From a virus, in IMG/VR virus record IMGVR_UViG_3300005515_000023, positions 1 to 39,374 of that record: a stretch of 39,374 nt of DNA; one strand, 5' to 3'. Both the position numbers and the translations under genes were made by a program. The notes under the pieces are model-generated. The model was not told the DNA's origin. It ran no database searches and saw nothing but the letters and a program-made list of their open reading frames with translations. Of the stretch, positions 1 to 39,374 are shown one piece after another. The first letter of the stretch is position 1. Each line of letters begins with the position of its first letter.

Positions 1-40
1 TCATCGCCGGCCCCGGCCTTTCTCTTGTCCATCTTCTCGC
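1..40. repeat. Direct terminal repeat, copy 1 (identical to 39335..39374)
   Basis: tcatcgccggccccggcctttctcttgtccatcttctcgc is present verbatim at both window ends. Confidence 0.95.
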
Positions 41-133
41 GAGCGTCCGCCAAGACCTGCCTCACGAGAACATCGAGTCTGACCATTCGTCTCCCCCCTT
101 CGCGTCCTCACAGTCGCGAAAGGAACAGCCGAG

Positions 134-559
134 ATGTCGGTCAAATCAGCCCAGCTTGGAATTTCTAGACAAGGTTCAGATGAGATGAGTTGCTTCGCTA
201 TCCAGGCCCGATCCCACCTCGGGGCCATCGTCCAATTCGTCGCTCCGGCAATGCCGCTCAAGTCTGCTTTGCCGCGCGTCGCTGCCTATGTCGGCCTGAA
301 TGCCCGTCGCTGCCGCGCCCTTTGGAACAAGGAAGCGCGGGCGATCCTGGCACACGAAATCCATCAGCTCGAAGCAGCTCGCGCCCGCATTTCCGAGCGG
401 CTTCTGACCAAGGACATGCACGACCATGCGAGTCATCTGGAGATCCGCGCGGCCCGTCTGGCTGCGGATGATGGCGATTTTCACCGGGAAGAGATTTCAC
501 GCCTGCGCCGAATGGCTCAGCGAGCGAGGGACTTCGCTGCTGATCTGGGGGAGGCGTAA
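134..559 (+). CDS. Hypothetical early protein (cII-like map position)
   Basis: AAGGA lies about 9 nt upstream of the ATG. The frame is GC3-rich and the stop TAA abuts the next ATG. No recognisable domain. The antisense ORFs 1..261 and 176..484 look spurious. Confidence 0.6.
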   Translation: MSVKSAQLGISRQGSDEMSCFAIQARSHLGAIVQFVAPAMPLKSALPRVAAYVGLNARRCRALWNKEARAILAHEIHQLEAARARISERLLTKDMHDHASHLEIRAARLAADDGDFHREEISRLRRMAQRARDFAADLGEA

Positions 560-1009
560 ATGAGCGCGCCATGGCATGACGAAGCACGACGGCTGAAAGC
601 CGACGGAAAGCCGACGAGAGAGATCGCCCGGCTTGTCGGGCGGTCGCAAACCGTTCTCATCGACTTCTTCAATCCGGCTTCGGCCCAGCGCCGGCGGCTT
701 CGCAAGATCGAGCGGCGCGCAGAGGCGCGCCTGTCGTACAACGGAGAGCGCAAGCGCGCCTTCATTGAGCCAGAGGTTTTGGACGCAGCAGTCGTCGCAT
801 CCTATGGCGATAAGCCTTCGCGCCACGTGCCGAGCCTGCCCAAGATCAGTCTCCAGGCAGTCGTTGACGAGCCCAAGCCGCTTCGGATCGTAACCCGAAC
901 AGTCTTCACCGATGACGCTGGCGCAGATCGTTGGCGCGAAGTGCATCGCAAGATGATCCGAGAGGGGCGGATTTCCCAACCTGGCTTGGTTGAGGAGATG
1001 CGACATTGA
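560..1009 (+). CDS. Early protein with N-terminal helix-turn-helix-like segment
   Basis: WHDEARRLKADGKPTREIARLVGRSQTVL resembles a GcrA / sigma region 4 type HTH. The stop TGA overlaps the TTG start of the next gene (TTGA). Confidence 0.6.
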   Translation: MSAPWHDEARRLKADGKPTREIARLVGRSQTVLIDFFNPASAQRRRLRKIERRAEARLSYNGERKRAFIEPEVLDAAVVASYGDKPSRHVPSLPKISLQAVVDEPKPLRIVTRTVFTDDAGADRWREVHRKMIREGRISQPGLVEEMRH

Positions 1010-1380
1010 AGGTCGTTAAACTCGATCTCCCGCAGCCGGTATCGGCGAACCGCATCTGGCGGACGACCCGCACCGGCCGGACGTACCTGAACCCGCGCTA
1101 CAAAGCTTGGCGGGAGGACGCTCTTAGCCGCCTCTGGGAGCAAAAGCCGGCAGGAGGGTTTCCCTTCTTCCCGAGCGCTTTCGACGTGCAGATCATTATG
1201 CCTGTGAAGCTCCGGGCTGACATCGACAACATGATCAAGCCGTTGCTCGACTTTCTCGCGGAGCCGGCGCGCATCATCGCCAACGATCGGCATACGCGCA
1301 GTGCTTCGATCAGCCGCTCTGCCGATATCGCCAAGGGCATGTGTCGCGTGTTCGTCTACGAGACGAAGGAGGCGGCATGA
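1006..1380 (+). CDS. rusA: RusA-family Holliday junction resolvase
   Basis: LPQPVSANRIW...YKAW near the N-terminus and ADIDNMIKPLLDFL...IANDRH match the RusA pattern (LPxPxSxN, DxDN..K..xD.L, xDD). Size of 124 aa is typical. Confidence 0.85.
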   Translation: MKVVKLDLPQPVSANRIWRTTRTGRTYLNPRYKAWREDALSRLWEQKPAGGFPFFPSAFDVQIIMPVKLRADIDNMIKPLLDFLAEPARIIANDRHTRSASISRSADIAKGMCRVFVYETKEAA

Positions 1381-1556
1381 CGAACGTTGTCGACATGACC
1401 AAGCCTCTGCTCAAGCGTCGCGAGGAAGAGGCACGGCGCAAGTTCGGCTTTGAGCCGGGGCAGACCGCTATTCCGATCGGCTATGCCGCCGCGCTCCTTG
1501 TCGAGCGCACGAGACTTCGCATGGCCGAGCAGCGCAATCGCGAGGCCGCTCGATGA
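1377..1556 (+). CDS. Hypothetical small protein
   Basis: ATGA overlap with the rusA stop and with the dnaB start, so it is translationally coupled. 59 aa. Confidence 0.5.
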   Translation: MTNVVDMTKPLLKRREEEARRKFGFEPGQTAIPIGYAAALLVERTRLRMAEQRNREAAR

Positions 1557-2974
1557 ACGCGCACTTCGACGCCTATCAGGCTTGGGGCGATGGGATCGCC
1601 AGCATCGAGATGTCGCTCATTGGCGGCGTGATCCTGCATGCGGGATCAGTTGGCCGCGTCCTGATGACGGGCATCGAGGCAGAACACTTTGCGGACCCTG
1701 GCTGTCGTGCTCTCTGGCAGCGCATCGCCGATATCGTGGCGCGAGGCGGCGCTATTGACCACCGCACCGTACTTCAAGGCGGCGCGTCGGTCGTCGTAGA
1801 GCCGGGGGCGGATCACAATGCCTTCCTCGCCAAGATCCTTGCTGAGGCCGCTACAGCCCATTCGCTGACCGAGTACGCCAATCTCGTGAAGTCGGCATGG
1901 GTCATCCGCAGTTTCATCCAGAACGCCGATCACGCGCGCTCCGAGGCTGCGACATCCGACACCATCGCGCTGTCCCGCAATCTGATTGATGCGGTCGATA
2001 GCTTGAGAGACGGCGCATTCGATCGCGCCGGTTCGCGTCGCGGGTCGTTGAAGCAGATTTCCGAGATCGTAGGCCGCGAGGCACAGGAGATGATCCAGGG
2101 GCTTCGCGAGAGGCCGCCCGGCACCGGCTGGGCCGATCTCGACAAGCACCTGCCCATGGGAGGTCTTGCACCGGGGTCGCTGATCATCCTGGCCGGTCGA
2201 ACGGGCGCCGGCAAGACCATGATGTCGTCTGCCCTTGCTGCACAGCTTTCATTCGCGGGACATGGAGTCGTCTATTTCTCGCTTGAGGTCCCATCCACCG
2301 AGATCGCCGCCCGCGTCGTTTGCTCGCGGCTGCGCGGCAAAGCCCCTTCCTATGGCGATGTCCTCTCAGGTCGCATCACAGAAGACGAGCTAGAGCGGTT
2401 CCTGCGCGTGCAGGAGGACTTCAGCGCCGTCCCGATGGAGATCGAGGACGCGCCGGCCATGGGCATTCAGGACATCAACCTTGCTGCCCGCAAGGTAGCG
2501 CAACGGTTCGAGCGCAGCGGCCAGAAGCTGGGCCTCATCGTCGTAGACCATGCCCAGATCGTGAAGCCAACGGCGCGCTATCAGGGCAACCGCGTCGGAG
2601 AGCTTGGCGAGATCGCCAATGCCGCGAAGGTCATGGCCAAGCAGCTCGGCTGCTCTGTCGTCCTGTGCAGCCAGCTCAACCGTGGCGTAGAGGGGCGCGA
2701 CGACAAGCGTCCGCAACTGTCTGACCTCAGAGCATCTGGCGAGGTCGAGGAAGCCGCGGACGCCGTCCTGATGCTCTACCGCGAGGCCTACTACCTGGCG
2801 CGGGATAAGGACTATCTGGCCGGAGACCCTACCGCATTGGATCGCATGGACGTGGTCCGCAATCAGCTTTCGGTCGGCGTCGAGAAGTCCCGCCAAGGCT
2901 CAACGGGCCAATGCACGCTCTGGTGCGACCCGGCCCGCTCGATCGTCACTGGATGGCATGGAGATCGGCGATGA
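1553..2974 (+). CDS. dnaB: DnaB-type replicative DNA helicase
   Basis: Walker A GRTGAGKT. DnaB C-terminal motifs LIVVDHAQIV, SQLNRGVEGRDDKRPQLSDLRASGEVEEAADAVLMLYREAYY. DnaB_N-like IEMSLIGGVIL at the N-terminus. Confidence 0.9.
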   Translation: MNAHFDAYQAWGDGIASIEMSLIGGVILHAGSVGRVLMTGIEAEHFADPGCRALWQRIADIVARGGAIDHRTVLQGGASVVVEPGADHNAFLAKILAEAATAHSLTEYANLVKSAWVIRSFIQNADHARSEAATSDTIALSRNLIDAVDSLRDGAFDRAGSRRGSLKQISEIVGREAQEMIQGLRERPPGTGWADLDKHLPMGGLAPGSLIILAGRTGAGKTMMSSALAAQLSFAGHGVVYFSLEVPSTEIAARVVCSRLRGKAPSYGDVLSGRITEDELERFLRVQEDFSAVPMEIEDAPAMGIQDINLAARKVAQRFERSGQKLGLIVVDHAQIVKPTARYQGNRVGELGEIANAAKVMAKQLGCSVVLCSQLNRGVEGRDDKRPQLSDLRASGEVEEAADAVLMLYREAYYLARDKDYLAGDPTALDRMDVVRNQLSVGVEKSRQGSTGQCTLWCDPARSIVTGWHGDRR

Positions 2975-3792
2975 GCGTTCAAGCCATCGGCTGGGCATTG
3001 GCGCAGAAAGTGGGCTCGTCGTCCGCAAAGTCTGTCCTTGTGGCCATCGCCAACTATGCCGACGAGAACGGTCAGTGCTGGCCGTCTCAAGGAAGGATCG
3101 CTTCCGACACCGAGCTGACTGACCGATCAGTTCGAACGGCGATGGCTCTGCTTGAGGAAAATGGGTTCATCAACCGCGTCGAACGCCGGAGGCCGGACGG
3201 CAGCCGCGCTACCGATACGATCAGCCTGATCATGCAACCGGAAAAATCTTCCGCACCCCCGGAAACTGCTTCCAAAAAGGCGGAAACAATTTCCCCACCC
3301 CCGGAAGGAGTTTCCGGGCTCACTACGTTTGAACCGTCAGTTAACCATCAAGAACCAGTAGCGCGCGCGAGCGCTGCCATGGTCGATCCCATCGCCAAGC
3401 TGAAAATCGACATCGTCAAGGCATTCTCCGCAGCGGGGTCGATGACGCTCGTACCGGATACGCATCGAGCGGAGCGATGGATTGCGCAGGGATACAGGCC
3501 CGATCTGATAATCGCGACGATCCGCGAATGCCTAGCCCGGAAGCCTCATGTCACGACGCTTTCCTATTTCGACAAGCCGATAGCTGAGGCGCACACGGCC
3601 AAGCCTGCATCCATCGCAAGGCCCATGGACCCGGAAACCGAGTGGCGCAACAAGCTGACGCGCTGGTTCGAGAAGAACGACTGGCCCGGCATGTGGGGTG
3701 ATCCTCCCGGACATCCCTGCTGCAAGATCCCGGCTGCATTCATCGCAGCCTTCAACCCATCCCATCTCCCCAGGAACGAGGAAGCGGCATGA
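2971..3792 (+). CDS. Replication initiator (lambda O-like; N-terminal winged HTH, linker carrying iterons)
   Basis: Start at MSVQAIGW (ATGA overlap with the dnaB stop). AKSVLVAIANYADENGQCWPSQGRIASDTELTDRSVRTAMALLEENGFI is a typical phage replication-protein wHTH. Four phased iterons lie in the linker-coding part. Confidence 0.7.
   Translation: MSVQAIGWALAQKVGSSSAKSVLVAIANYADENGQCWPSQGRIASDTELTDRSVRTAMALLEENGFINRVERRRPDGSRATDTISLIMQPEKSSAPPETASKKAETISPPPEGVSGLTTFEPSVNHQEPVARASAAMVDPIAKLKIDIVKAFSAAGSMTLVPDTHRAERWIAQGYRPDLIIATIRECLARKPHVTTLSYFDKPIAEAHTAKPASIARPMDPETEWRNKLTRWFEKNDWPGMWGDPPGHPCCKIPAAFIAAFNPSHLPRNEEAA
3238..3317. repeat. Putative origin iterons: 4 x GGAA-N5-TTCC at exact 21-bp spacing
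   Basis: GGAA starts at 3240, 3261, 3282 and 3303, each followed after 5 nt by TTCC. Most are flanked by CC..G. A relatively AT-rich stretch follows (3321..3363). Confidence 0.6.
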
Positions 3793-4049
3793 GCGCAGGT
3801 CTGCACTTCAACAGCCGGTCGGAAGCCGAGCGCGAAGCGATGGTCCAAGCGCTGACTAGCGCGGCAATCGCCATGGAAATGCTGCGACCGGAAAACCATT
3901 CGCAGACCTCGGATAGCGAACTGGCTGCACTGCTCTCGATGGCAGACCACGCGGTTCACGAGGTGCTGGATGTCATCGGTTCTGGCCGGAAGCGCGCGGA
4001 TGCCACTCCAAAATCCCCCCTTCAAAACCAAGAGAGGGACAGGACATGA
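3789..4049 (+). CDS. Hypothetical protein
   Basis: ATGA-coupled to the upstream and downstream genes. GC3-rich frame. Confidence 0.5.
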   Translation: MSAGLHFNSRSEAEREAMVQALTSAAIAMEMLRPENHSQTSDSELAALLSMADHAVHEVLDVIGSGRKRADATPKSPLQNQERDRT

Positions 4050-4351
4050 GCAGGCTTGAGGATTTCAATCAGGTCTACACAGACGCGCCCCGTTCTCCGG
4101 TCAGCGACGAGCCATTCGTCTTTCTGTCGGTCGACTATGACGAGCCCGACCCCAAGACTTACCGGGGGGTAAACGTGTCGGTCAGCCGGGGCACGACCCG
4201 GCGAGAGGAAAGGCTATTCGCCACCTTGGCCGAAGCCGAGGTCTTCGCCCAAAAAATCGGCGGCCACAAAGCCTACTCGTCGTCGTTCGATAATTTCAAG
4301 GCCGACCTCAAGCGACACCGCCCCACCCCCACCGATACCGGAGGACGATGA
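4046..4351 (+). CDS. Hypothetical protein
   Basis: ATGA overlap with the upstream stop. 101 aa. No recognised motif. Confidence 0.55.
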   Translation: MSRLEDFNQVYTDAPRSPVSDEPFVFLSVDYDEPDPKTYRGVNVSVSRGTTRREERLFATLAEAEVFAQKIGGHKAYSSSFDNFKADLKRHRPTPTDTGGR

Positions 4352-4352
4352 G

Positions 4353-4583
4353 ATGAGCGGCTGGGCCATTCTGTTTCTGGCTACAGGGGCATTCTCGGTC
4401 GTTGGCAGCCTTTATCACGCTGGCTTCATGCGCGGACTTTCCCACGCATGGCGAGGGTTGGAGGGCGGCAACCAGCAAGCAGCTGACTGCAACGGCGAAG
4501 CGCGAACCGCGATATGGCGGGCGTTCATCGTCGCAGGCGTAACCGCAATCCTGGTTGCGTGGGTCGAGGGTATCCGCCCATGA
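4353..4583 (+). CDS. Small membrane protein (2 predicted TM helices)
   Basis: GGAGGA lies upstream of the ATG. Hydrophobic segments WAILFLATGAFSVVGSLY and AFIVAGVTAILVAWV. Confidence 0.55.
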   Translation: MSGWAILFLATGAFSVVGSLYHAGFMRGLSHAWRGLEGGNQQAADCNGEARTAIWRAFIVAGVTAILVAWVEGIRP

Positions 4584-4894
4584 CCCTATCCCATGAGGAC
4601 AAGGCTGAGGGCATCTGCGCAGCGCTGGCGCGAGCTGAGGCTGCGTTCGATAAGCGCGGCTGGGTGGAGATGCCGAAAGCTGATCGCGATCGGTACGTCC
4701 AGCGCGCCATGCTCGCCAAGCCTCTTATCGCCCAAGCCATCCGAGAAGCCTGCAACGAGAAGCTGGAGGAGGCGGCGCGCATGATGGATGACGGCCCTCT
4801 CGACACGAAAAAATTCATGAGAGGTGAAATCGCGCCGGCTGAGTTCGAAGAAATTGCAGAGCGGATCAGGGAATTCAAGGACACAACCCCATGA
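4580..4894 (+). CDS. Hypothetical protein
   Basis: Start taken at MTLSHED (ATGA overlap with the preceding stop) rather than the track start 4514, whose N-terminus is R-rich junk. Confidence 0.55.
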   Translation: MTLSHEDKAEGICAALARAEAAFDKRGWVEMPKADRDRYVQRAMLAKPLIAQAIREACNEKLEEAARMMDDGPLDTKKFMRGEIAPAEFEEIAERIREFKDTTP

Positions 4895-5181
4895 CGGACG
4901 AGACAGGGTGGAGGCCGATCACCGAGGAGCCAGATCGGCCGATGACGGTGCTCTACTACAGCGCCTTGTGTCGCTGGCACGATCAGAATGGCGTTGAGCA
5001 CACATTCGATGGTGACCGCGACGAGAAATTCGGCCTCGGCTTCTGGGATGGAGAATGGCTCTGGCTGGGGACAGCTCACGGCGTCTTTGAGTTCGAATAC
5101 GAGCCCGGCCACCCAGATTGCCCCACCCACTGGATGCCCGCGCCCCTCCCTCCACCGCCCACACCCAAGGAGAAGGCATAA
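4891..5181 (+). CDS. DUF551-like protein
   Basis: GWRPITEEP near the N-terminus and a C-terminal THWMPAPLPPPP, the characteristic DUF551 signature. A paralogue is at 28943..29263 (-). Confidence 0.7.
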   Translation: MTDETGWRPITEEPDRPMTVLYYSALCRWHDQNGVEHTFDGDRDEKFGLGFWDGEWLWLGTAHGVFEFEYEPGHPDCPTHWMPAPLPPPPTPKEKA

Positions 5182-5711
5182 TGGCCAAAGCCGGACCACG
5201 TCGCCGCGAGAACGTCCGCCGCTATGGCAACGGGCGCATCGTCAATGCTGACCGAGGTGAGAGGCCTGACAAGATCGTCGCCACCGTCCTTGCCCAGCCC
5301 CACCGTCGCGGCGAACGCTCGCACCTGGCCGGATTCGCCTATGGCCGCATGCTGCTAGGCGGGATGATCGATCAGCGCCAGTTCGAAGCCGCAGAGGTCT
5401 TCACCAAGCGCACCGTGCGCCACATGTCGATCGTCACCAGCAGCCTGCCGCGCTTTCCCAGCATCGCCGCCAACATGGTCGGCACGTTCTCGACTGGATC
5501 AGGCGCAGATCCTGACGATGAGACCATCGCCTCTGTCCGGTCAGCCTATTCCGAGATGGAGGACGCGCTTGCTGACAGTGGCATGCTCTACGAGGGCACA
5601 GCCATCCTCACTCGGGTCTGTGTTATGGACAAGGAGATCGAGGGAGACGCAGCTATGGGCGCCTTCCGCTGCGCGCTCAATGTCATCGCGAACAGGCTGA
5701 GGATTGCGTGA
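5181..5711 (+). CDS. Hypothetical protein, last large gene before the late control region (candidate late regulator by position only)
   Basis: Start MAKAGPRRR (TAATG overlap, AAGGAGAAGG upstream). 176 aa. No domain recognised. Confidence 0.6.
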   Translation: MAKAGPRRRENVRRYGNGRIVNADRGERPDKIVATVLAQPHRRGERSHLAGFAYGRMLLGGMIDQRQFEAAEVFTKRTVRHMSIVTSSLPRFPSIAANMVGTFSTGSGADPDDETIASVRSAYSEMEDALADSGMLYEGTAILTRVCVMDKEIEGDAAMGAFRCALNVIANRLRIA

Positions 5712-5896
5712 TGGAACGTCACAGGTGTCGATACTGCCGCAAGCTCGTGCGAGACAAGCCGGTTTTTGGTACGCTGCACGTTTGTCTGTCGGCCGGCAAG
5801 AGGATCGAGATCGACTATTACCGATGGGCGGCCGCAGAGCAGAAGCGGATGAATGCTCAGTGGGAAAAGTATCGCCAGGCCTGCGAGGGCTCTTGA
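5711..5896 (+). CDS. Small zinc-ribbon-like protein (CxxC...HxC)
   Basis: GTGATG overlap with the upstream stop. RCRYCRKL...LHVCLS gives a CCHC arrangement. The stop TGA lies inside the TTGACG hexamer of the candidate late promoter. Confidence 0.5.
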   Translation: MERHRCRYCRKLVRDKPVFGTLHVCLSAGKRIEIDYYRWAAAEQKRMNAQWEKYRQACEGS

Positions 5897-5921
5897 CGTT
5901 TCGCCCCCGAAACGGTATGCC
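5893..5921 (+). promoter_or_regulatory. Candidate late promoter TTGACG-N17-TATGCC
   Basis: TTGACG at 5893..5898, 17-nt spacer, TATGCC at 5916..5921. Sits at the start of a roughly 420-nt non-coding stretch preceding the first late gene. Confidence 0.35.
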
Positions 5922-6247
5922 GATCATGAACATGGGCTCATTCGCCCAGCGTACAGGTTTCAGAGTTCGCCCGCGCCTTGAGATGCTGTGCTCGCAACTC
6001 AGCAGAGGCTTCTAGAGCCGCTTAGACCGGGCGATTCACTTCATGCGGCGGCGTGGAAAGCAGACACGCTGAGAGGACAAAGCAGCGGGCTGGGTGGCCA
6101 GCCTTCCCAAGGGTGGACGGTCAGGTAGCCATAGCGCCGTCCGAAGCCGGGGGCGAAAGCCTACGCGAGATTCCTGACGAATGCTGCAAGCGCGGGCGTA
6201 CCAACGCCTTGCCACAGCCGGAGTAGCGCCCGGCCCGCATGAAATTC

Positions 6248-6272
6248 AACTAGTTCCAAAATGGAACTAGTT
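6248..6272. repeat. Perfect AT-rich inverted repeat AACTAGTTCC-aaaat-GGAACTAGTT
   Basis: 10-bp arms are exact reverse complements and each contains ACTAGT. Striking in a GC-rich genome. It lies immediately upstream of the leader terminator. Confidence 0.9.
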
Positions 6273-6275
6273 CAG

Positions 6276-6305
6276 CCCCGCCCTAGCCGGCGGGGTTCTT
6301 CGTTT
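6276..6305 (+). terminator. Intrinsic terminator-like hairpin before the first late gene
   Basis: CCCCGCC-ctagcc-GGCGGGG followed by TTCTTCGTTT. The RBS AGGAG and ATG 6318 follow directly. Confidence 0.55.
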
Positions 6306-6317
6306 CAGGAGCAGGCC

Positions 6318-6551
6318 ATGGCAAAATACGAATACGCCACCTGCGACACCGACAAGGTTGAGAACGCCAAGGCATCCCTTCATCAGCAGGCAGGCCGCAA
6401 AGGCGAAGAGATCGTCGGCTTCCACGTCTTCACATCGGACAGCTACCCCAAGCTCCAGCAGCACGACGCTACGAAGGGCCAGGAGTTCACGATCATCCTC
6501 GGCTTCACCACGCAGCGAGAGTTGGACAAGGCGAAAGATGGCCGCCCGTAA
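6318..6551 (+). CDS. Hypothetical protein, first late-operon gene
   Basis: Start MAKYEY with CAGGAGCAGG upstream. The track start 6261 lies inside the palindrome and has no RBS. Confidence 0.55.
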   Translation: MAKYEYATCDTDKVENAKASLHQQAGRKGEEIVGFHVFTSDSYPKLQQHDATKGQEFTIILGFTTQRELDKAKDGRP

Positions 6552-6801
6552 GCAGCTCTGGCACCCCGATGCGGTGCGCGAAAAGATCCAGGCAAGTCAG
6601 CTCATCAACCGCCTGACAAAGCACGCCCTTTCCGACAAGCCGATTATGGATGCGTCGCAAGTCACTGCGGCAACGAAGCTGCTTGGCAAGGTTCTGCCTG
6701 ATCTCTCCGCCACTACGCTCTCAGGCGGCCTTGATGTGACCACGCAGACCAAGGAACAGCGTGATGCCGCGGTCGCAGCTGCAACTCGCGCCGACAGCTG
6801 A
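6538..6801 (+). CDS. terS: Terminase small subunit (putative)
   Basis: Internal start MAARKQLW at 6538. IQASQLINRLTKHAL...QVTAATKLLGKVLPDL resembles small terminases of BcepC6B/F116-type podophages as I recall them. Lies directly upstream of and overlapping terL. Confidence 0.5.
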   Translation: MAARKQLWHPDAVREKIQASQLINRLTKHALSDKPIMDASQVTAATKLLGKVLPDLSATTLSGGLDVTTQTKEQRDAAVAAATRADS

Positions 6802-8236
6802 AGATTACGCCTTCTCTCGCCTCATTGCGTACGCGGCGTACCAGTGGCCCGGCTATCGTGACGCGCCGCATCACAGGTTGATCGCAAGGCATCTGGAGGC
6901 AGTCGAGCGGGGAGAAATCACCCGCCTGATGATCACAATGCCGCCTCGGCATGGCAAGAGCATGCTGGCGAGCGAGTTCTTCCCGGCTTGGTATCTCGGC
7001 AGGAACCCAGACCACTACGTTGTCACGGCCACATACGCGCAAGACCTGGCTGACGATTTCGGGCGCAAGGTCAAGAACCAGATCGAGGATTTCGGGTTCA
7101 AGGCCATTTTCCCCGGCGTGGGGCTGGCTGACGACAGCAAGAGCGCCAAGCGCTTCCACATTCAGGAGGCAGCCGGCGGCATCGAGCACGCGACGAACCA
7201 GCGCGGCGCCTTCTACGCAGTCGGTGTAGGCGGACCACTCACTGGCCGCGGCGCTCATCTTCTGCTGATCGACGACCCGGTGAAGAACCGCGAGGACGCG
7301 GAATCCGAGGTCATCCGGAAGAAGACGAAGGACTGGTACACGTCGACGGCCTACACCCGCCTGATGCCAGGCGGCCGGGTCGTGCTGATCCAAACACGTT
7401 GGCATGAAGACGATCTGTCGGGCTGGCTCCAGACCGAGCACAAACACGAGGGCTGGGTCGTTCTAGACCTGCCAGCGATCGACAAGGCCGGCAAAGCGCT
7501 CTGGCCTGAACAATACGACCTCGAGGCGCTGGAGAGGATCAAGCGAGCGCTCCCGCCGCGGGACTGGTCCGCGCTTTATCAGCAGGCACCAACACCGGAC
7601 GAAGGCGACTACTTCAAGACGGAGTGGTTCAGGGCTGGCACGCTGCCGCCAAAGGATCAGATGCGCATCTACGGCGCGTCCGACTATGCGGTCACGGCTG
7701 ACGGCGGCGACTTCACGGTTCACGTCGTCGTCGGTATCGACCCTGATGGGCGCATGTGGCTCCTCGATGTCTGGCGCCAGCAGGCGGCGTCCGATGTCTG
7801 GGTAGAGGCCTGGTGCGATCTCGTCCTGAAGTGGAAGCCCATGGGGTGGGCCGAGGAGACAGGCCAGATCAAAGCGGGCGTCGGGCCGTTCCTTGAGAAG
7901 CGCGCACGAGAGCGGAAAGCCTATTGCTATCGCGAGCAGTTCCCGACGCGCGGAGACAAGGCAGTACGGGCTCAATCAATCCGCGGGCGCATGGCCCTGG
8001 ATGGCCTCTACATCGCCGCTGACGCGCCATTCAGGAGCGATCTGATCAGCGAGTGCCTGCGCTTTCCGGCCGGCGTCCATGACGACCAGGTCGATGCTCT
8101 GGGGCTAGTGGGTCAGCTGCTCGACAGGATGCTGAACGGCCAGAAGCCGAAGACGGACGAGCCCCGGAAGCTGGCCAGCGACTACCGCGGCGCCGGAGAT
8201 GACTCGTCGTCGAGTGATGAATGGATGACCGTCTGA
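6761..8236 (+). CDS. terL: Terminase large subunit
   Basis: Walker A-like PPRHGKS, Walker B LLLIDDP, coupling motif and nuclease-domain residues (WHEDDLSGWL, GASDYAV, VHDDQVDAL). AAGGA lies upstream of GTG/ATG 6761/6764. Confidence 0.9.
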   Translation: MMPRSQLQLAPTAEDYAFSRLIAYAAYQWPGYRDAPHHRLIARHLEAVERGEITRLMITMPPRHGKSMLASEFFPAWYLGRNPDHYVVTATYAQDLADDFGRKVKNQIEDFGFKAIFPGVGLADDSKSAKRFHIQEAAGGIEHATNQRGAFYAVGVGGPLTGRGAHLLLIDDPVKNREDAESEVIRKKTKDWYTSTAYTRLMPGGRVVLIQTRWHEDDLSGWLQTEHKHEGWVVLDLPAIDKAGKALWPEQYDLEALERIKRALPPRDWSALYQQAPTPDEGDYFKTEWFRAGTLPPKDQMRIYGASDYAVTADGGDFTVHVVVGIDPDGRMWLLDVWRQQAASDVWVEAWCDLVLKWKPMGWAEETGQIKAGVGPFLEKRARERKAYCYREQFPTRGDKAVRAQSIRGRMALDGLYIAADAPFRSDLISECLRFPAGVHDDQVDALGLVGQLLDRMLNGQKPKTDEPRKLASDYRGAGDDSSSSDEWMTV

Positions 8237-22254: not shown

Positions 22255-23627
22255 ACATCAACGTTCGGCTGCGCAGCCCTTCTCCGATCAAACTCCGCTT
22301 CCAGCCAGGCGCTACCGGGCCGTCTGGAACGGTCACGGTCAACCCGACGACGATCACCGGGGCGCCGGGGTCGAACGCATCCGTCGCGAACACTGGCACG
22401 CCTGAAGCAGCTGTTCTCCAGTTCACCATTCCCCGCGGCGATGTCGGTCAGCCTAACTCACTCGCGATTGGCACGGTGACGACTGGTGCGGCCGGCTCCA
22501 GCGCTTCAGCTTTGATCACAGGGACGCCTCCCAGCCAGACGCTAGACCTGACGATTCCTCGCGGGGATCAAGGCATCCCTGGCTCCGTCACCAACGGCGA
22601 CAAGGGCGACATCACCGTCACCGGCACTGGTGACACTTGGACGATCGATAACAGCGCTGTCACTACAGCCAAAATCGCCGCAGCAGCCATCACGATCCCC
22701 AAGCTCGGAGCCGACGTGCTGGCGCTGTTCCCGCTGGCGACCGGCCGGCTGACACTGGTCAGCGGCACGGCTTTCACGTCGGCTGACACTGTCGGGGCGA
22801 CGAACGTCTACTACACCCCGGCAGAAGGTGACGTGATCTCGATCTATGACGGCACGAACTTCGTCCCTCAGGTCTTCACCGAACTGACGCTCGCGCTCAG
22901 CTCGAACTCGGGTCACACCGGCTACCACCAGTCCGGCAAAAACTTCGACCTGTTCGCCGTGCTCGACAGCGGCACGCTGCGACTGGCGACCGGCCCGGCA
23001 TGGACTTCGGACACCGGGCGTGGAACCGGCGCTGGCACGACTGAACTGGAAATGCTCAAGGGCCAGCCGGTCAACAAGAACGCCATAACAATGCGGTTCG
23101 GATCGGCGTCCGGGAACACGATCTCCGCGGCGGCGCGGGCCGGGCGCTATCTCGGAACGCTCCGCACCACGGCAGATGGGGTCACCGAAGACAGCGTCGC
23201 CAAACGCTTCCTTTGGAACGCGTTTAACCAAGTCGAGCTACACATGCGCCGGACCGACCCCGCTGGATCGTGGGCCTACACCAGCGGAACGCCCCGCTAT
23301 GCCAATGGCAACGCTCTCAACCGGTTGGAATTTGTCACCGGCCTGACTGGCGCGAAAGTCGATGCTTTTGCGGTTCAAGGCGCGACCACCACTACTACCG
23401 GCTCTGCCGGCGTCTATTTGGGCCTAGACAGCTCCTCGACCAACGCCGGGTCTGACGGGCTCATGAACCTGCTGCAACCAAATGCGAGCCTCACCCTCGT
23501 CTCGTATGGCCGCATCGACTACAGCGGATATCCTGGGGTCGGCTTCCACTTTCTGTCCCATATCGAAGTGGGTGCGGCTGGGTTCACGATGTACGAAGGC
23601 GGCATCTCCGGCAGGCTGATGGGATGA
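22251..23627 (+). CDS. Tail fibre / receptor-binding protein
   Basis: ATGA overlap. N-terminal repeats GxxGxxAS...L(Q/D)(F/L)TIPRGD(V/Q)G typical of phage tail-fibre repeat regions. Large beta-rich C-terminal domain. Confidence 0.75.
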   Translation: MNINVRLRSPSPIKLRFQPGATGPSGTVTVNPTTITGAPGSNASVANTGTPEAAVLQFTIPRGDVGQPNSLAIGTVTTGAAGSSASALITGTPPSQTLDLTIPRGDQGIPGSVTNGDKGDITVTGTGDTWTIDNSAVTTAKIAAAAITIPKLGADVLALFPLATGRLTLVSGTAFTSADTVGATNVYYTPAEGDVISIYDGTNFVPQVFTELTLALSSNSGHTGYHQSGKNFDLFAVLDSGTLRLATGPAWTSDTGRGTGAGTTELEMLKGQPVNKNAITMRFGSASGNTISAAARAGRYLGTLRTTADGVTEDSVAKRFLWNAFNQVELHMRRTDPAGSWAYTSGTPRYANGNALNRLEFVTGLTGAKVDAFAVQGATTTTTGSAGVYLGLDSSSTNAGSDGLMNLLQPNASLTLVSYGRIDYSGYPGVGFHFLSHIEVGAAGFTMYEGGISGRLMG

Positions 23628-24466
23628 CGCGTTCTCGTTCATGGTCTAGCGCCGGACCTGACCCGGTTGCGCTTACATCTTCCAGCCAGTCGCTCGGTCT
23701 AGCCTTTGCGAACACGACCGGCCGGACGCAGGTCTATCCCGGCACCGCGTCCGGTCAGCGACGGTTCGCCCCGCTCATGGTAGGCCAATCGCTGATGGCG
23801 AGCTTCGCTGATGTGCTGGCGACGAATTCCTATTCAAGCCAGATCGACATGCTCAACATCAACAACGGCGGGGTCTACACCGCTCAAGACCCGCTGCTTA
23901 GTGCTGGCTACGACCCGAACCGAGAAGCGCTCGGCTTGGCCAACGGCAACGTTGGCATCCCGATCGCAAACAAGGTCATTGCGGCGAACTACACCGACCG
24001 CGTGACGCTGGTGAATGTCGCGATCGGCGGGACGTCGGTCGCGAATTGGGCCACCGGGCCGCTCGCTGATCGTCTGCGCATTGCGTGGAACAGGATGAAG
24101 GCGATCAATCTTGTCCCGTCCTGCGTCATGTGGGAGCAGGGCCAGGCCGATGCCGCCGGAGCGACGAGCGGGTCAGATTATCAAGACCGGCTCACCGCGA
24201 TCATCACGAACTTTCGGGCGCTCGACCCTGCACTTGCTGCGGTGCCGTGGCTGATCGCGCAAAGCACTTTCCCTGCCACAGACCCTGGAAAGACTACGAT
24301 CCGAGCTGCGCAGGCGGCCGTCGTCAACGTGCCGAATCATATCCTGGCGGGTCCTGACACGGACACGTTGAATGGCACATATCGCCACGATGGCGTGCAC
24401 TGGAATTCATCCGGCTTGAACGCAGCATCTGACCTATGGGTCGCCAAGCTCGCAGCCCTGTTCTGA
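23624..24466 (+). CDS. SASA/SGNH-type carbohydrate O-acetylesterase (tail-associated, putative)
   Basis: Motif order VGQSLM (GQSNM-like Ser block), AIGGTS, WEQGQAD, HDGVHW (DxxH) matches the sialate-O-acetylesterase (SASA) family. ATGA-coupled to the tail-fibre gene. Confidence 0.65.
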   Translation: MTRSRSWSSAGPDPVALTSSSQSLGLAFANTTGRTQVYPGTASGQRRFAPLMVGQSLMASFADVLATNSYSSQIDMLNINNGGVYTAQDPLLSAGYDPNREALGLANGNVGIPIANKVIAANYTDRVTLVNVAIGGTSVANWATGPLADRLRIAWNRMKAINLVPSCVMWEQGQADAAGATSGSDYQDRLTAIITNFRALDPALAAVPWLIAQSTFPATDPGKTTIRAAQAAVVNVPNHILAGPDTDTLNGTYRHDGVHWNSSGLNAASDLWVAKLAALF

Positions 24467-24826: not shown

Positions 24827-25558
24827 ATGTTCACCGCTGACGATCTCACGCGGCTCGCGAAGGCGTGCGGCGCGAAGCCCAATGCTGCCGTAGTGGCAGG
24901 GATAGTCGAGAACCGCAGCTACCTGACCTATGGCGGGATCAACACGCCGGCCAGGGTCGCGGAATTCCTCGCTCAGGCATGCCTGGAGACCGATTATTTC
25001 CGCGTGCTGGAGGAGTACGCCAGCGGGAAGGCCTACGAAGGGCGCAAGGATCTCGGGAACGTCGTTGCCGGCGACGGCGTGAGGTTCAAGGGTCGCGGCA
25101 TCTTCCAGTGCACTGGCCGCGCCAACTACACCGCCTATGGCAAGCGGCTGGGTCTCGATCTGCTGAAGGAGCCGGGACTGGCAGCGCGGCCCGATATCAG
25201 CGCCCGCATCGCCGTCATGTACTGGAACGATAAAGGGCTGAACGCCTACGCCGATCGAGGCGAGACCGCGGCCATTTCGCGAGCGATCAACCGGGGCAAC
25301 CCGAAGGCCAAGAACCCAGCGAACCATGAGGCTGACCGGATCAAGATCGCCAAGCTGGCGCGTCAGATTATCAGGCCCGTAGCGAGCCCGGCCGCAGCCA
25401 ACACCTCCGACGCTGTCCCGGTCGAAGATCTCCCGAAAGCTCCCGCACCTCCGATCGACCACCAGCCGCCGGCTGTGATCGTCAGCGACGTGCCGCTTCC
25501 CAAGCCCGGCTTCTGGTCGCGCTTCTGGTCTGCTCTCACGAAGAAGGCTTCCGCATGA
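24827..25558 (+). CDS. Endolysin, glycoside hydrolase family 19 (chitinase-like)
   Basis: FLAQACLETDYF...LEEY...YEGRKDLGN...GDGVRFKGRGIFQCTGRANY matches the GH19 phage lysin pattern. CCGGAG RBS. Confidence 0.85.
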   Translation: MFTADDLTRLAKACGAKPNAAVVAGIVENRSYLTYGGINTPARVAEFLAQACLETDYFRVLEEYASGKAYEGRKDLGNVVAGDGVRFKGRGIFQCTGRANYTAYGKRLGLDLLKEPGLAARPDISARIAVMYWNDKGLNAYADRGETAAISRAINRGNPKAKNPANHEADRIKIAKLARQIIRPVASPAAANTSDAVPVEDLPKAPAPPIDHQPPAVIVSDVPLPKPGFWSRFWSALTKKASA

Positions 25559-37492: not shown

Positions 37493-37536
37493 CTCGCTCT
37501 CCGGTCCAGAGCCTTAGCTCGGTGGGTGTGAGAGCG

Positions 37537-37565
37537 GTTATAACTTTAGTGTTTTAGAGCGTCAA
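37537..37565 (-). promoter_or_regulatory. Candidate PL promoter TTGACG-N17-TATAAC with operator-like elements
   Basis: On the minus strand: TTGACG (37565..37560), 17-nt spacer, TATAAC (37542..37537). The -10 lies in the palindrome GTTATAAC. The spacer holds the 10-mer AACTTTAGTG (37542..37551), which also occurs in OR. Confidence 0.55.
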
Positions 37566-37588
37566 CAACTTTTGTTATCGCAACGAAT

Positions 37589-37626
37589 AAAAAAATGCCC
37601 GCGCTTATGGCGGGCGGCGTTTTCTT
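37589..37626 (-). terminator. Intrinsic terminator after cI (potentially bidirectional)
   Basis: GCCCGC-gcttatg-GCGGGC (37597..37615), flanked by AAAAAAA on one side and GGCGTTTTCTT on the other. On the minus strand the stem is followed by ATTTTTTT. Confidence 0.75.
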
Positions 37627-37627
37627 G

Positions 37628-38284
37628 TTATGTGCCAAACAGTTCGTTGATCGTGAACACCCTATGGATGCTCTTTATCCGGGCTGTCTCGATCTCGATA
37701 TCGCAGTCCGGATTGAACTGGTGGAGCTTCACGACTGTCGCGCCCCTTCTTACCAGACGCTTAATGAACCCTTTCCCGGGTACCCCATCTTCCTCAGGGT
37801 GCAGCTCGACTACGACGTAGTCCCCAATGGCCGCTGGCCTCAGTGCAGAGACGTAGAGCATATCGTTCGGGTCGAAACGGGGCGACATGCTGTCGCTCGT
37901 CACGTAGACCGCGTAGACGCCATTAGTCTTAGCTAGCCCCGGAGGGCGCCGGACGTACTCAGATACAGATCCATTAAACGAAAAGTCTGCGTCGCTTCCT
38001 CCCACAGCTACCCCCTTAACGGGAATGTCCAGCGGCATTGACTGCCTCTGAAGCGCCAGGTCGGTGGAGGCTTCCTCTGCGGGTGCTTCCGGCTGGCTTC
38101 CCACCGGGATATTGAGCAGGCGCATGATCTCGGGCAACCACTTTGATTTGGTCGTCTCGCCGCTTTCAATCTTGGCGATTGCAGCCTGAGATATACCTAC
38201 CCCGCGCGCGAGGTCGGATTGCGACATCCCTCGCGCTTCGCGTTCAGATCTGATTCGGTCACCTAACGGCATATCGCCGTCCAT
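37628..38284 (-). CDS. cI: cI-type repressor (XRE-family HTH + S24 LexA-like peptidase domain)
   Basis: GMSQSDLARGVGISQAAIAKIESGETT (HTH_3). C-terminal VTSDSMSPRF (Ser) and GFIKRLV (Lys) give the S24 autoprotease dyad. Start set at MDGDMPLG (38284); the track start 38413 would overlap cro. Confidence 0.88.
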   Translation of the reverse strand: MDGDMPLGDRIRSEREARGMSQSDLARGVGISQAAIAKIESGETTKSKWLPEIMRLLNIPVGSQPEAPAEEASTDLALQRQSMPLDIPVKGVAVGGSDADFSFNGSVSEYVRRPPGLAKTNGVYAVYVTSDSMSPRFDPNDMLYVSALRPAAIGDYVVVELHPEEDGVPGKGFIKRLVRRGATVVKLHQFNPDCDIEIETARIKSIHRVFTINELFGT

Positions 38285-38363
38285 AACCGGAGTTATGGCG
38301 CTTGTCGCGAAAACTTTAGTGGTTGCAGTTCCATAACTTCTGTTGTATTTCGTTGTTATGGAC
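38279..38363. promoter_or_regulatory. Divergent control region (OR) with four CCATAAC/GTTATGG half-sites
   Basis: CCATAAC at 38281 and 38331; GTTATGG at 38292 and 38355. The outermost copies extend to a 9-bp inverted repeat, GTCCATAAC (38279..87) / GTTATGGAC (38355..63), that contains the ATGs of cI and cro. The 10-mer AACTTTAGTG at 38312..21 is shared with OL. Confidence 0.6.
38323..38351 (+). promoter_or_regulatory. Candidate PR promoter TTGCAG-N17-TATTTC
   Basis: Hexamers at 38323..28 and 38346..51. The cro ATG is only 6 nt after the -10 and no SD is visible, which suggests a leaderless transcript. Confidence 0.35.
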
Positions 38364-38591
38364 ACTCGCTCACTCCTGATTTCGGCCATCCAAGATGCCG
38401 GTTCCGAGGCCAAGCTTGCCGCGAAAGCGGGGTGCTCTCAGGTCGCCATCAACAAGGCCAAAAAAGCCGGGCGCGTATCGCCCGCCATGGCAGTCATGCT
38501 GGAGCGCGCTACCAGCCACGGCCGTCACGTCTGGCGCCCTGACCTTTGGCCTGTCGCAGTCCCTTCCGACGAAATGCGGAGGGCTGGGTGA
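38358..38591 (+). CDS. cro: Cro-like / YdaS-type small DNA-binding protein
   Basis: LLISAIQDAGSEAKLAAKAGCSQVAINKAKKAGRVSPAMAVMLERAT is the Cro/YdaS-type HTH. Divergent from cI. An alternative TTG start is at 38343. Confidence 0.75.
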   Translation: MDTRSLLISAIQDAGSEAKLAAKAGCSQVAINKAKKAGRVSPAMAVMLERATSHGRHVWRPDLWPVAVPSDEMRRAG

Positions 38592-39157
38592 TGACCGTCG
38601 TGGCGTCTGGGTACGAACGTCAGGTCAATGACCTGTACGAAACTCCTGAGTGGGTGACGCAGGCATTGATCCGCGCGATCGGGTTCAACCCCGATCGAGA
38701 CGTTGTCTGGGAACCGTCCGCTGGCAACCACAAAATCGCGGATGTGCTCAAGGCTGCTGGGATGTCTGTCCGCACCAGCGATATCGCGACTTACAGCCGA
38801 GAACATGACGCTACCTTCGATTTCCTTGGGAACGAGAGCATCAACTTCGGAGCGCGGCATCTTGTCACCAATCCACCCTACGGCAAGGGGAACCGCGACG
38901 CCGTCAAGTTCGCTCATCGTGCCCTCTGGCGGTGCAATGGCATCGTCGCGCTGTTGCTCACCGCCAAGTTCGATTTCGGCAAGACCAGAGCCGATCTGTT
39001 CCGCGACAACCCTCGTTTCCTTGCCAAGATCGCATTGCTCGATCGTATCCAGTGGTTTGAAGGCGAGCATGGGTCGACCGAGGACCACGCGTGGTTCGTG
39101 TGGGGCGCCGCCGATAGGCGACATGAGCCCCGGCTACTCTGGGAAGCGCGCAAGTAA
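38591..39157 (+). CDS. Orphan N6-adenine DNA methyltransferase (minimal, 188 aa)
   Basis: Start MTVVASG (TGATG overlap with the cro stop). SAM motif I-like VWEPSAGNHKIA and catalytic motif IV LVTNPPYG. No adjacent restriction gene. Confidence 0.75.
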   Translation: MTVVASGYERQVNDLYETPEWVTQALIRAIGFNPDRDVVWEPSAGNHKIADVLKAAGMSVRTSDIATYSREHDATFDFLGNESINFGARHLVTNPPYGKGNRDAVKFAHRALWRCNGIVALLLTAKFDFGKTRADLFRDNPRFLAKIALLDRIQWFEGEHGSTEDHAWFVWGAADRRHEPRLLWEARK

Positions 39158-39174: not shown

Positions 39175-39366
39175 TCACCCCCTTTGGCCGCCCGGACGGC
39201 CCGTCAGTGCCCTGTCTCCTCCCTTCGGGTGCACGACAAAGCGACGCGCTGGGATAGCCACGTCGGCTCCGGGCCTTCCACCCGCGAGGCTTGTTCCTCC
39301 CTTGCCGTCTCGCGGCATCCTGCCGGGGCTCGGCTCATCGCCGGCCCCGGCCTTTCTCTTGTCCAT
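39175..39366 (-). CDS. Doubtful minus-strand ORF; in the circular molecule extends to an ATG at 84..86 (81 aa)
   Basis: Across the junction it reads MVRLDVLVRQVLADAREKMDKRKAGAG..., preceded by GGGGGGAG. The body is G/P/R-rich with many AGA/AGG/GGA codons atypical for this genome. Confidence 0.2.
   Translation of the reverse strand: MDKRKAGAGDEPSPGRMPRDGKGGTSLAGGRPGADVAIPARRFVVHPKGGDRALTGRPGGQRG
39186..39360 (+). ncRNA. Candidate structured RNA / sRNA with anti-SD (CCUCCC) loop motifs
   Basis: Four consecutive hairpins. 39186..39201. 39207..39234 (loop UGUCUCCUCCCUUC). 39282..39315 (stem CCGCGAG/CUCGCGG, loop with UUCCUCCCUU). 39322..39351 (GCCGGGGC/GCCCCGGC) followed by CUUUCUCUU. Confidence 0.3.
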
Positions 39367-39374
39367 CTTCTCGC
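39335..39374. repeat. Direct terminal repeat, copy 2 (identical to 1..40)
   Basis: Exact 40/40 match to positions 1..40. Confidence 0.95.

Follow-up and report, generated by a model that had tools for sequence, protein, structure and literature searches.

Do repeats buried inside a protein-coding gene mark the place where a phage begins to copy its DNA? The question is raised by a stretch of 39,374 nucleotides from a virus (positions 1 to 39,374 of IMG/VR record IMGVR_UViG_3300005515_000023; hereafter the window), in which the gene for a predicted replication initiator of 273 residues (2971..3792, plus strand) contains four evenly spaced copies of the palindrome GGAA-N5-TTCC. The gene product matches the Pfam family HTH_36 and PHROGs described as 'replication initiation protein / O-like', and directly upstream, on the same strand, lies the gene for a DnaB-type replicative helicase. 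Comparison with related loci leads us to the view that positions 3239-3375 are probably an initiator-bound replication origin, situated as in phage lambda within the linker-coding part of its own initiator gene; we put the probability of this reading at roughly 80%. That protein binds to 3239-3375 and that an origin fires there is what we infer, as are the role of the initiator as the binder, the site of melting and the route of helicase loading.

The motif GGAANNNNNTTCC (GGAA-N5-TTCC) occurs exactly four times in the window, at 3240, 3261, 3282 and 3303; 0.49 matches would be expected by chance, and none of 100 shuffled sequences reached four. All four fall within 76 bp at spacings of 21/21/21, and Tandem Repeats Finder reports a 21-nucleotide period over 3238-3306. 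The core extends to CGGAA-N5-TTCC in every copy, and to CGGAA-N5-TTCCG in copies 1 and 4, giving iterons at 3239..3253 (CGGAAAAATCTTCCG), 3260..3274 (CGGAAACTGCTTCCA), 3281..3295 (CGGAAACAATTTCCC) and 3302..3316 (CGGAAGGAGTTTCCG), none of which is assigned to a strand. The observation from which this work started, an earlier note of four palindromes phased every 21 bp in the initiator gene, proved correct in each checkable detail. No other iteron-like cluster or strong tandem repeat was found in the window, which leaves no other origin candidate. Isolated CCGGAAA half-sites are present at 3631-3637 and 3888-3894 (5 of the 14 genome copies lie within 660 bp); considered as extra sites, they were taken as chance occurrences, and the 3631 copy is not kept in the peptides of close relatives.

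An AlphaFold2 model of the initiator (68 homologues) contains a confident winged helix over residues 1-87 and a confident helical C-terminal domain over residues 140-260, both with a predicted local distance difference test score (pLDDT) of ~90, separated by a low-confidence segment at residues ~90-139 (pLDDT 45-64), which the model marks as a predicted disordered linker. The array corresponds to residues 90-115 and the conserved DNA behind it reaches to residue 135, both wholly within this segment. This bears out the earlier placement of the repeats between an N-terminal winged helix-turn-helix and a C-terminal domain, and the linker peptide described at that point is PEKSSAPPETASKKAETISPPPEGVSG. 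The HTH_36 (PF13730) match spans residues 17-67 and scores 48.7 bits against a gathering cut-off of 25 (E = 6.7e-13), and the replication initiation families PHROG 1032, 270 and 391 were matched at 1e-18 to 4e-23. Hints of a DnaD-like relation came from the C-terminal part, whose match to PF07261 (DnaB_2) falls short of the cut-off at E = 0.016, and from PHROG 186, a 'DnaD-like helicase loader' (2.7e-6). Foldseek searches with the full-length model returned weak, generic winged-helix matches (DnaD-N, 2v79; the RepA_N initiators 4pt7 and 5kbj; E = 0.015-0.04), a sequence search of the PDB with the initiator gave zero matches, and no Rep_3 domain was matched in the protein by Pfam.

Is it the DNA or the encoded peptide that is kept? 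Relatives were found by protein search, and their DNA was then retrieved and compared. Among six close sequences (83-98% nucleotide identity) the half-sites are invariant, with none of 32 positions varying, while in the spacers 7 of 20 positions differ, non-synonymously (S/F, A/P, T/A, I/F/V, G/R/A). Of the third-codon positions, 60 of 87 vary in the part encoding the helix-turn-helix, but only 1 of 26 within the array and 4 of 21 in the downstream block (Fisher p = 1e-9 and 4e-5, respectively); codon 4 invariably ends in T, whichever of S, A, I or V it encodes. In three more distant loci (L059, L060 and L064, ~65% identical) GGAA-N5-TTCC stands at gene nucleotides 279, 300, 322 and 366 with a half-copy near 344, giving spacings of 21/22/22/22, so that the third copy (322) is read in another frame and encodes T-G-N-N-F-R instead of PExxS. 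At 36% identity, a Camelimonas fluminis prophage (L002) and a second locus (L065) carry CCGGCA-N5-TGCCGG at the equivalent positions, both half-sites having changed together. Because the half-sites are fixed, the spacers change amino acids, the frame shifts and the half-sites switch in concert, it is close to certain that selection acts on the repeat DNA itself, independently of the encoded peptide. The 21-bp phasing had been singled out beforehand as something to check in relatives, with a kept peptide and a lost nucleotide periodicity named as the damaging outcome; the reverse was found, motif and phasing being retained while the peptide changes. In the same region of L002 (gene nucleotides ~300-345) and of L065, hybrid iterons (TTGGAAAAATCTGCCG and CCGGCAGATCCTTCCG, of the forms GGAA...TGCC and GGCA...TTCC) are interspersed in the GGCA/TGCC arrays, possibly as intermediate stages of a change in specificity.

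The pattern extends across the family. From genomes, metagenomes and viral contigs 170 loci were collected and dereplicated to 109, and the linker zone of each was taken as gene nucleotides 200-560. At least three exact palindromes sharing the same 4+4 half-site were found in 40 of the 109 zones; the other 589 kb held six such clusters, or ~0.004 per zone of equal size (0.4%), which corresponds to an enrichment of ~100-fold at the linker zone. With one mismatch allowed the figures are 65/109 (60%) against 6% of control zones, and at least four copies of a 10-mer are present in 54/109 (50%) against 1.3%. Most array spacings fall between 21 and 24 bp, 22 being the commonest, and successive copies therefore usually lie in different reading frames. 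One metagenomic relative (L074) departs from this range, with four contiguous GGAA-N5-TTCC copies spaced every 15 bp, adjoining units having their CG ends in common (gene nucleotides 303-348; locus 2803-2862) and a fifth copy 45 bp further on. The array is tied to the N-terminal domain of the initiator across very different genomic neighbourhoods, and on the loci compared iteron arrays are a positional hallmark of the HTH_36 initiator family.

The half-site sequence differs from clade to clade (CCGGAA, CCGGCA(C), CCGGACA, CCGGCCA, CCCGACA, TCGCA, CTGCAC, CCGCA, TTGCA and others), with palindrome pairs such as GGACA/TGTCC, GGCCA/TGGCC, CGACA/TGTCG and TCGCA/TGCGA in clades other than that of the window. 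Within one genome, however, the copies share a single half-site sequence. Such uniformity would be the pattern of a sequence-specific binder co-evolving with its sites, and a mere hairpin would not give it. The N-terminal domain is more alike between loci with the same half-site (55% vs 44%), whereas the C-terminal regions are not (27% vs 25%). Additionally, residues 50-51, where the predicted recognition helix begins, vary with the half-site: T-D/E is found with GGAA, S-E with GGCA and, in two separate clades, G-E with GGCC.

The DNA that follows the array is also conserved. Directly after the last iteron lies a junction block on the plus strand (3316..3330, GGGCTCACTACGTTT) that is nucleotide-identical in relatives with only 36% protein identity, and CTCACTNCGTT is found in the zone of 41 of the 109 relatives. 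On the same strand, 3331..3360 then holds three direct repeats of the GAACCNTCA type with a period of about one helical turn: GAACCGTCA at 3331-3339, TAACCATCA at 3342-3350 and GAACCAGTA at 3352-3360. A GC-rich alternating palindrome (3360..3375, AGCGCGCGCGAGCGCT, no strand assigned) closes the region; GC-rich palindromes were seen by eye at the equivalent place in many relatives, the simple GCGC..GCGC pattern being present in 14 of 109. The AT-rich stretch that had been noticed after the repeats is real but modest, since positions 3319-3360 have 43% GC against 62% for the genome and rank in the lowest 0.6% of 42-nucleotide windows.

The density of GAACCNTCA across the family is 2.55 per kb in the linker zone against 0.015 per kb elsewhere. 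Within the zone the motif is confined to the coding strand, mostly at spacings of 11-12 bp, and its reading frame is not constant (84, 17 and 2 cases). Where it encodes E-P-S, GAA is used over GAG 90:1 and TCA in 84 of 91 cases, compared with gene-wide usages of 50% for GAA and 15% for TCA. Because codon choice is skewed in this way, the conserved peptide SGLTTFEPS is largely a shadow of the DNA element. A link between GAACCNTCA and either the phage helicase or the type of C-terminal domain was considered and rejected: the motif occurs with or without an upstream phage DnaB gene, and with unrelated C-terminal domains. Its distribution indicates that it belongs to a module made up of the N-terminal domain and the origin, and the junction block together with the GAACCNTCA-like repeats is a candidate DNA-unwinding or loading element.

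A course of initiation can be sketched from this layout. Dimers of the N-terminal winged helix would bind the four dyad-symmetric CGGAA-N5-TTCC iterons and, because these are 21 bp apart, would lie on one face of the helix. The resulting nucleoprotein complex would bend and stress the adjacent 45-bp stretch, the AT-richest part of the module, and this lower-GC element, comprising the junction block and the three GAACCNTCA-like repeats and bounded by the GC palindrome, would open. Strand-specific capture of the kind described for the RK2 13-mers (PMC4081077) might allow the GAACCNTCA repeats to keep the DNA open, and the C-terminal domain would then recruit the phage-encoded DnaB-type helicase, the gene for which lies immediately upstream and is translationally coupled. 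It is a matter of speculation that transcription from an early promoter through the gene could aid opening, as in lambda.

A more general scheme can be drawn for the family, which we offer tentatively. HTH_36 origins might consist of two separable parts, namely fast-evolving iteron half-sites that co-vary with residues 50-51 in a form of recognition code, and an invariant, strand-specific GAACCNTCA element for opening or loading. In such a scheme, itself a doubtful proposition, the GAACCNTCA direct repeats, phased at one helical turn, would be common to alphaproteobacterial and enterobacterial phages, irrespective of iteron type, C-terminal domain or helicase. A speculative extension by analogy is that GAACCNTCA might be captured as single-stranded DNA in the manner of the RK2 13-mers or DnaA-trios. 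We know of no sequence-specific opening or loading element of the GAACCNTCA type described for phage origins.

How well does an origin fare against other functions for the same DNA? The plainest alternative denies the repeats any DNA function and regards the periodicity as a by-product of a seven-residue peptide repeat, P-E-x-x-S-x-x, in a low-complexity linker. It draws on the equality of 21 bp with seven codons and on the units PEKSSAP, PETASKK, AETISPP and PEGVSGL, but close relatives vary precisely at the positions that change amino acids while their synonymous sites are frozen (1/26 vs 60/87), the T that ends codon 4 persists under four different residues, and L059, L060 and L064 retain the motif in another reading frame. 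Furthermore, spacings of 22-23 bp prevail in the family, and in the many relatives that have them no peptide repeat is therefore possible. Codon-position statistics and frame shifts thus exclude this account, which we regard as scarcely credible. Alternatively, the palindromes could act as hairpins in mRNA or single-stranded DNA, or as a cruciform, for example to pause translation or transcription, without being sites for a protein. Symmetric changes of half-sites would preserve base pairing too, but the single stems are only 4-6 bp long, the pairings predicted between iterons show, by inspection, no compensatory spacer changes in close relatives, and helical phasing at 21-24 bp is a property of duplex DNA; a half-site that is constant within a genome and different between genomes is needed by a sequence-specific binder and not by a hairpin. 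Hairpins as the whole explanation seem to us highly improbable.

Two further alternatives accept a bound protein and assign it another task. The repeats could be an operator or roadblock for autoregulation or for downstream transcription, occupied by the helix-turn-helix protein or another regulator, with no origin involved. HTH_36 is indeed a generic DNA-binding domain, some sources name the relatives 'transcriptional regulator', and iteron-binding initiators of plasmids often autoregulate too (PMC5043065). Against this, phage replication initiators are the best family matches, translational coupling ties the gene to that of a DnaB helicase, the genome offers no other origin candidate, and a purely regulatory role leaves unexplained the AT-richer element with its one-turn direct repeats and the palindrome that always follow the array, as they do in lambda and P22. 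The two roles are not mutually exclusive, and an operator in place of an origin appears rather unlikely. A centromere-like partition site or a packaging (pac) site is a very improbable identity for the array. Phased repeats are typical of parC/parS-type centromeres (PMC6669507), and a plasmid-like prophage is conceivable, there being no integrase domain among the 26 open reading frames of the window scanned against Pfam; however, the same scan revealed no ParA/ParM/ParB-type domain (no systematic search for one was made among the neighbours in the relatives), the terminase genes lie at a distance of 3 kb, and the array stays with the N-terminal domain of the initiator in very different neighbourhoods.

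Some of the observations weigh against an origin, or at least against parts of the argument for one. The signals of dyad symmetry fit a hairpin equally well, and a 161-nucleotide region shows unusually strong predicted single-strand folding (z = -5.0 vs shuffles). The 'AT-rich' element is, at 43% GC, far less extreme than that of lambda (22%). The correspondence between residues 50-51 and the half-site involves few clades and is confounded by phylogeny, so that it is a lead and no proof. GAACCNTCA tracks neither the phage helicase nor the type of C-terminal domain. Finally, homology to lambda O or P22 gp18 was sought and not detected: the initiator has no match to PF04492 (Phage_rep_O) at E <= 0.01 and reaches hhalign probabilities of 0.9% and 1.4%, while lambda O and P22 gp18 as controls both match PF04492 at 1e-36 to 1e-38. 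With no sequence homology to lambda O detected, the likeness to lambda is an architectural one.

The genome around the array is in keeping with a phage origin. Window positions 1-40 are identical to 39335-39374 (TCATCGCCGGCCCCGGCCTTTCTCTTGTCCATCTTCTCGC), and the assembly is therefore circular and probably represents a complete phage genome of ~39,334 bp. The early operon that holds the array belongs to a temperate phage genome, encoding a CI-like repressor, an ERF recombinase and a RusA resolvase; the phage is likely an uncultured temperate one with an alphaproteobacterial host. The helicase gene (1553..2974, plus strand) encodes 473 residues with a DnaB N-terminal domain and matches to Pfam DnaB_C (2e-57) and PHROG 19. 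The initiator ATG overlaps its TGA as ATGA, a 4-nucleotide overlap, so the coupling proposed in the earlier note agrees with the coordinates. A start at 2971, and not at the in-frame upstream ATG at 2911, is preferred because the homologues all begin MSVQA... The helicase-then-initiator order had also been called unusual; the order itself holds, but it is no one-off, being conserved in the clade, where the pair recurs with an identical 4-nucleotide overlap in L057-L065, and a DnaB homologue lies directly upstream of the initiator in 18 of the 84 relatives with enough flank. A Pfam scan of the open reading frames made no separate helicase loader gene visible in the window. DnaA boxes are not enriched (42 matches vs 44 expected, none with fewer than two mismatches), and a sigma-70 promoter scan of 1-6500 gave results at chance level only.

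Searches of sequence collections yielded no close cultured-phage relative. Against phage records the initiator matched at no more than 36% identity, over the N-terminal half only; a Rhodobacterales relative (L026) used as query against the same records found nothing; and DNA matches of window positions 1-8000 to phage records were confined to the terminase region, 6902-7999. Among plasmids there was one distant match, in Tardiphaga. In close relatives the early operon carries extra genes upstream of the helicase (L059, 1503-2078; L062, 1623-2162; L060, 1258-1773; L057, 650-916), which include those for a DnaA C-terminal (Bac_DnaA_C) domain protein, a GcrA-like protein and a GapR-like protein. 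These genes point to alphaproteobacterial hosts and make interplay with host replication or cell-cycle control possible. Elsewhere in the window, the AT-richest 100-nucleotide windows of the genome (42-45% GC; 37531-37630 and 38261-38360) flank the gene for the CI-like repressor (37628-38413, minus strand; domains HTH_3 and Peptidase_S24), and this is presumably the immunity region, with divergent promoters and operators. The late structural region includes open reading frames with a SASA (sialate O-acetylesterase-like) domain (23624-24466) and a glycoside hydrolase family 19 domain (24827-25558), possibly a receptor-modifying tail protein and an endolysin, respectively.

The immediate gain is a probable origin for an uncultured temperate phage, likely of an alphaproteobacterial host. 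More broadly, the lambda design of an origin in the initiator linker would be common to a large, unstudied family, HTH_36, whose members occur in prophages of the Alpha-, Beta- and Gammaproteobacteria and beyond. What the comparison adds to the initial observation is the clade-specific co-variation of iteron and recognition helix, and the conserved, strand-specific GAACCNTCA element. The natural iteron variants and the small recognition-helix changes that accompany them form a ready data set on the co-evolution of initiator and origin specificity, and in the GAACCNTCA repeats there is a concrete candidate, open to test, for the site of melting or loading. For annotators the warning is that conserved 'peptide motifs' of these proteins, such as SGLTTFEPS, largely reflect elements of the DNA.

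Tests of origin function become practical through the relatives in mEp460 and SfV, phages of E. coli and Shigella, mEp460 being cultured and tractable. The 'replication protein' of mEp460 (JQ182728.1, L171) matches HTH_36 at 1.8e-11 and is ~30% identical to the window initiator in the N-terminal half only. The layout inside the gene is that of the window: at 2066-2214 of its locus lie five GTGCA-N5-TTCAC-type repeats 21-24 bp apart, followed by three GAACCAGTCA at 12-17 bp; the iteron sequence and the C-terminal region are unlike those of the window. In SfV, orf39 matches the query identically to mEp460 by tblastn, a match at the protein level, and HTH_36 replication proteins are also present in some Shiga toxin (Stx) phages. 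No published origin analysis of the mEp460/SfV HTH_36 proteins was found in the literature searched, and queries on the motif strings and on an SfV orf39 origin returned irrelevant matches only.

Among established systems, iteron plasmids (RK2, P1, F, R6K, pSC101) resemble the window in having helically phased initiator-binding repeats beside a DNA-unwinding element. That of RK2 consists of short direct repeats (13-mers) captured as single strands by Rep (PMC5043065, PMC4081077), a possible model, by analogy, for the GAACCNTCA repeats. Plasmid iterons, however, lie outside the rep gene, act together with DnaA boxes and are direct repeats to which monomers bind. Membership of the iteron-plasmid (Rep_3 / WH1-WH2) class was considered and rejected: the repeats of the window are palindromic and lie within the gene, the initiator has no Rep_3 match and DnaA boxes are not enriched. 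Phage SPP1 has its oriL inside gene 38, whose product G38P binds repeats in its own gene beside an AT-rich DNA-unwinding element, and encodes its own DnaB-family helicase (PMC6316719). It differs in its direct repeats, separate loader G39P and second origin oriR, and the only sequence relation seen consists of the weak DnaD-like hints described above. P22 is similar in combining an initiator with a phage DnaB-type helicase in a module without a separate loader, and in an annotated origin inside gene 18, where iterons are followed by an AT-rich stretch containing short direct repeats and then by a GC palindrome. Its gp18, though, belongs to Phage_rep_O, and the order there is initiator (18) then helicase (12), whereas in the window the helicase precedes the initiator with an ATGA overlap.

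Another close known system is that of lambda, with which the Stx phages 933W and P27 are grouped. There, 18-19-bp inverted repeats are bound by dimers of O, a protein of two domains joined by a flexible linker, and a 39-40-bp AT-rich region opens (PMC5043065, PMC6022878, PMC7466680). Ori-lambda in gene O has four annotated iterons at 39034/39054/39078/39101 (spacings 20/24/23). The shared features are four dyad-symmetric repeats about two helical turns apart in the linker of the initiator gene, followed by a lower-GC stretch of ~40 bp and then an inverted repeat. The lambda-type arrangement claimed for this locus thus stands as far as layout goes (iterons, AT-rich stretch and palindrome in the initiator linker), but does not extend to homology of the initiator with lambda O. 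The initiator is of the HTH_36 instead of the Phage_rep_O type, the AT-richer element has 43% GC and GAACCNTCA direct repeats where lambda has 22% GC and A-tracts, and in place of a loader of the lambda P type encoded downstream there is a DnaB-type helicase gene upstream. Origins of this kind have often been reported in silico for new phages, Francisella phage KIRK among them (PMC7924643). The origin-in-initiator design is a known one; here it is seen in HTH_36 initiators, an uncharacterised initiator family.

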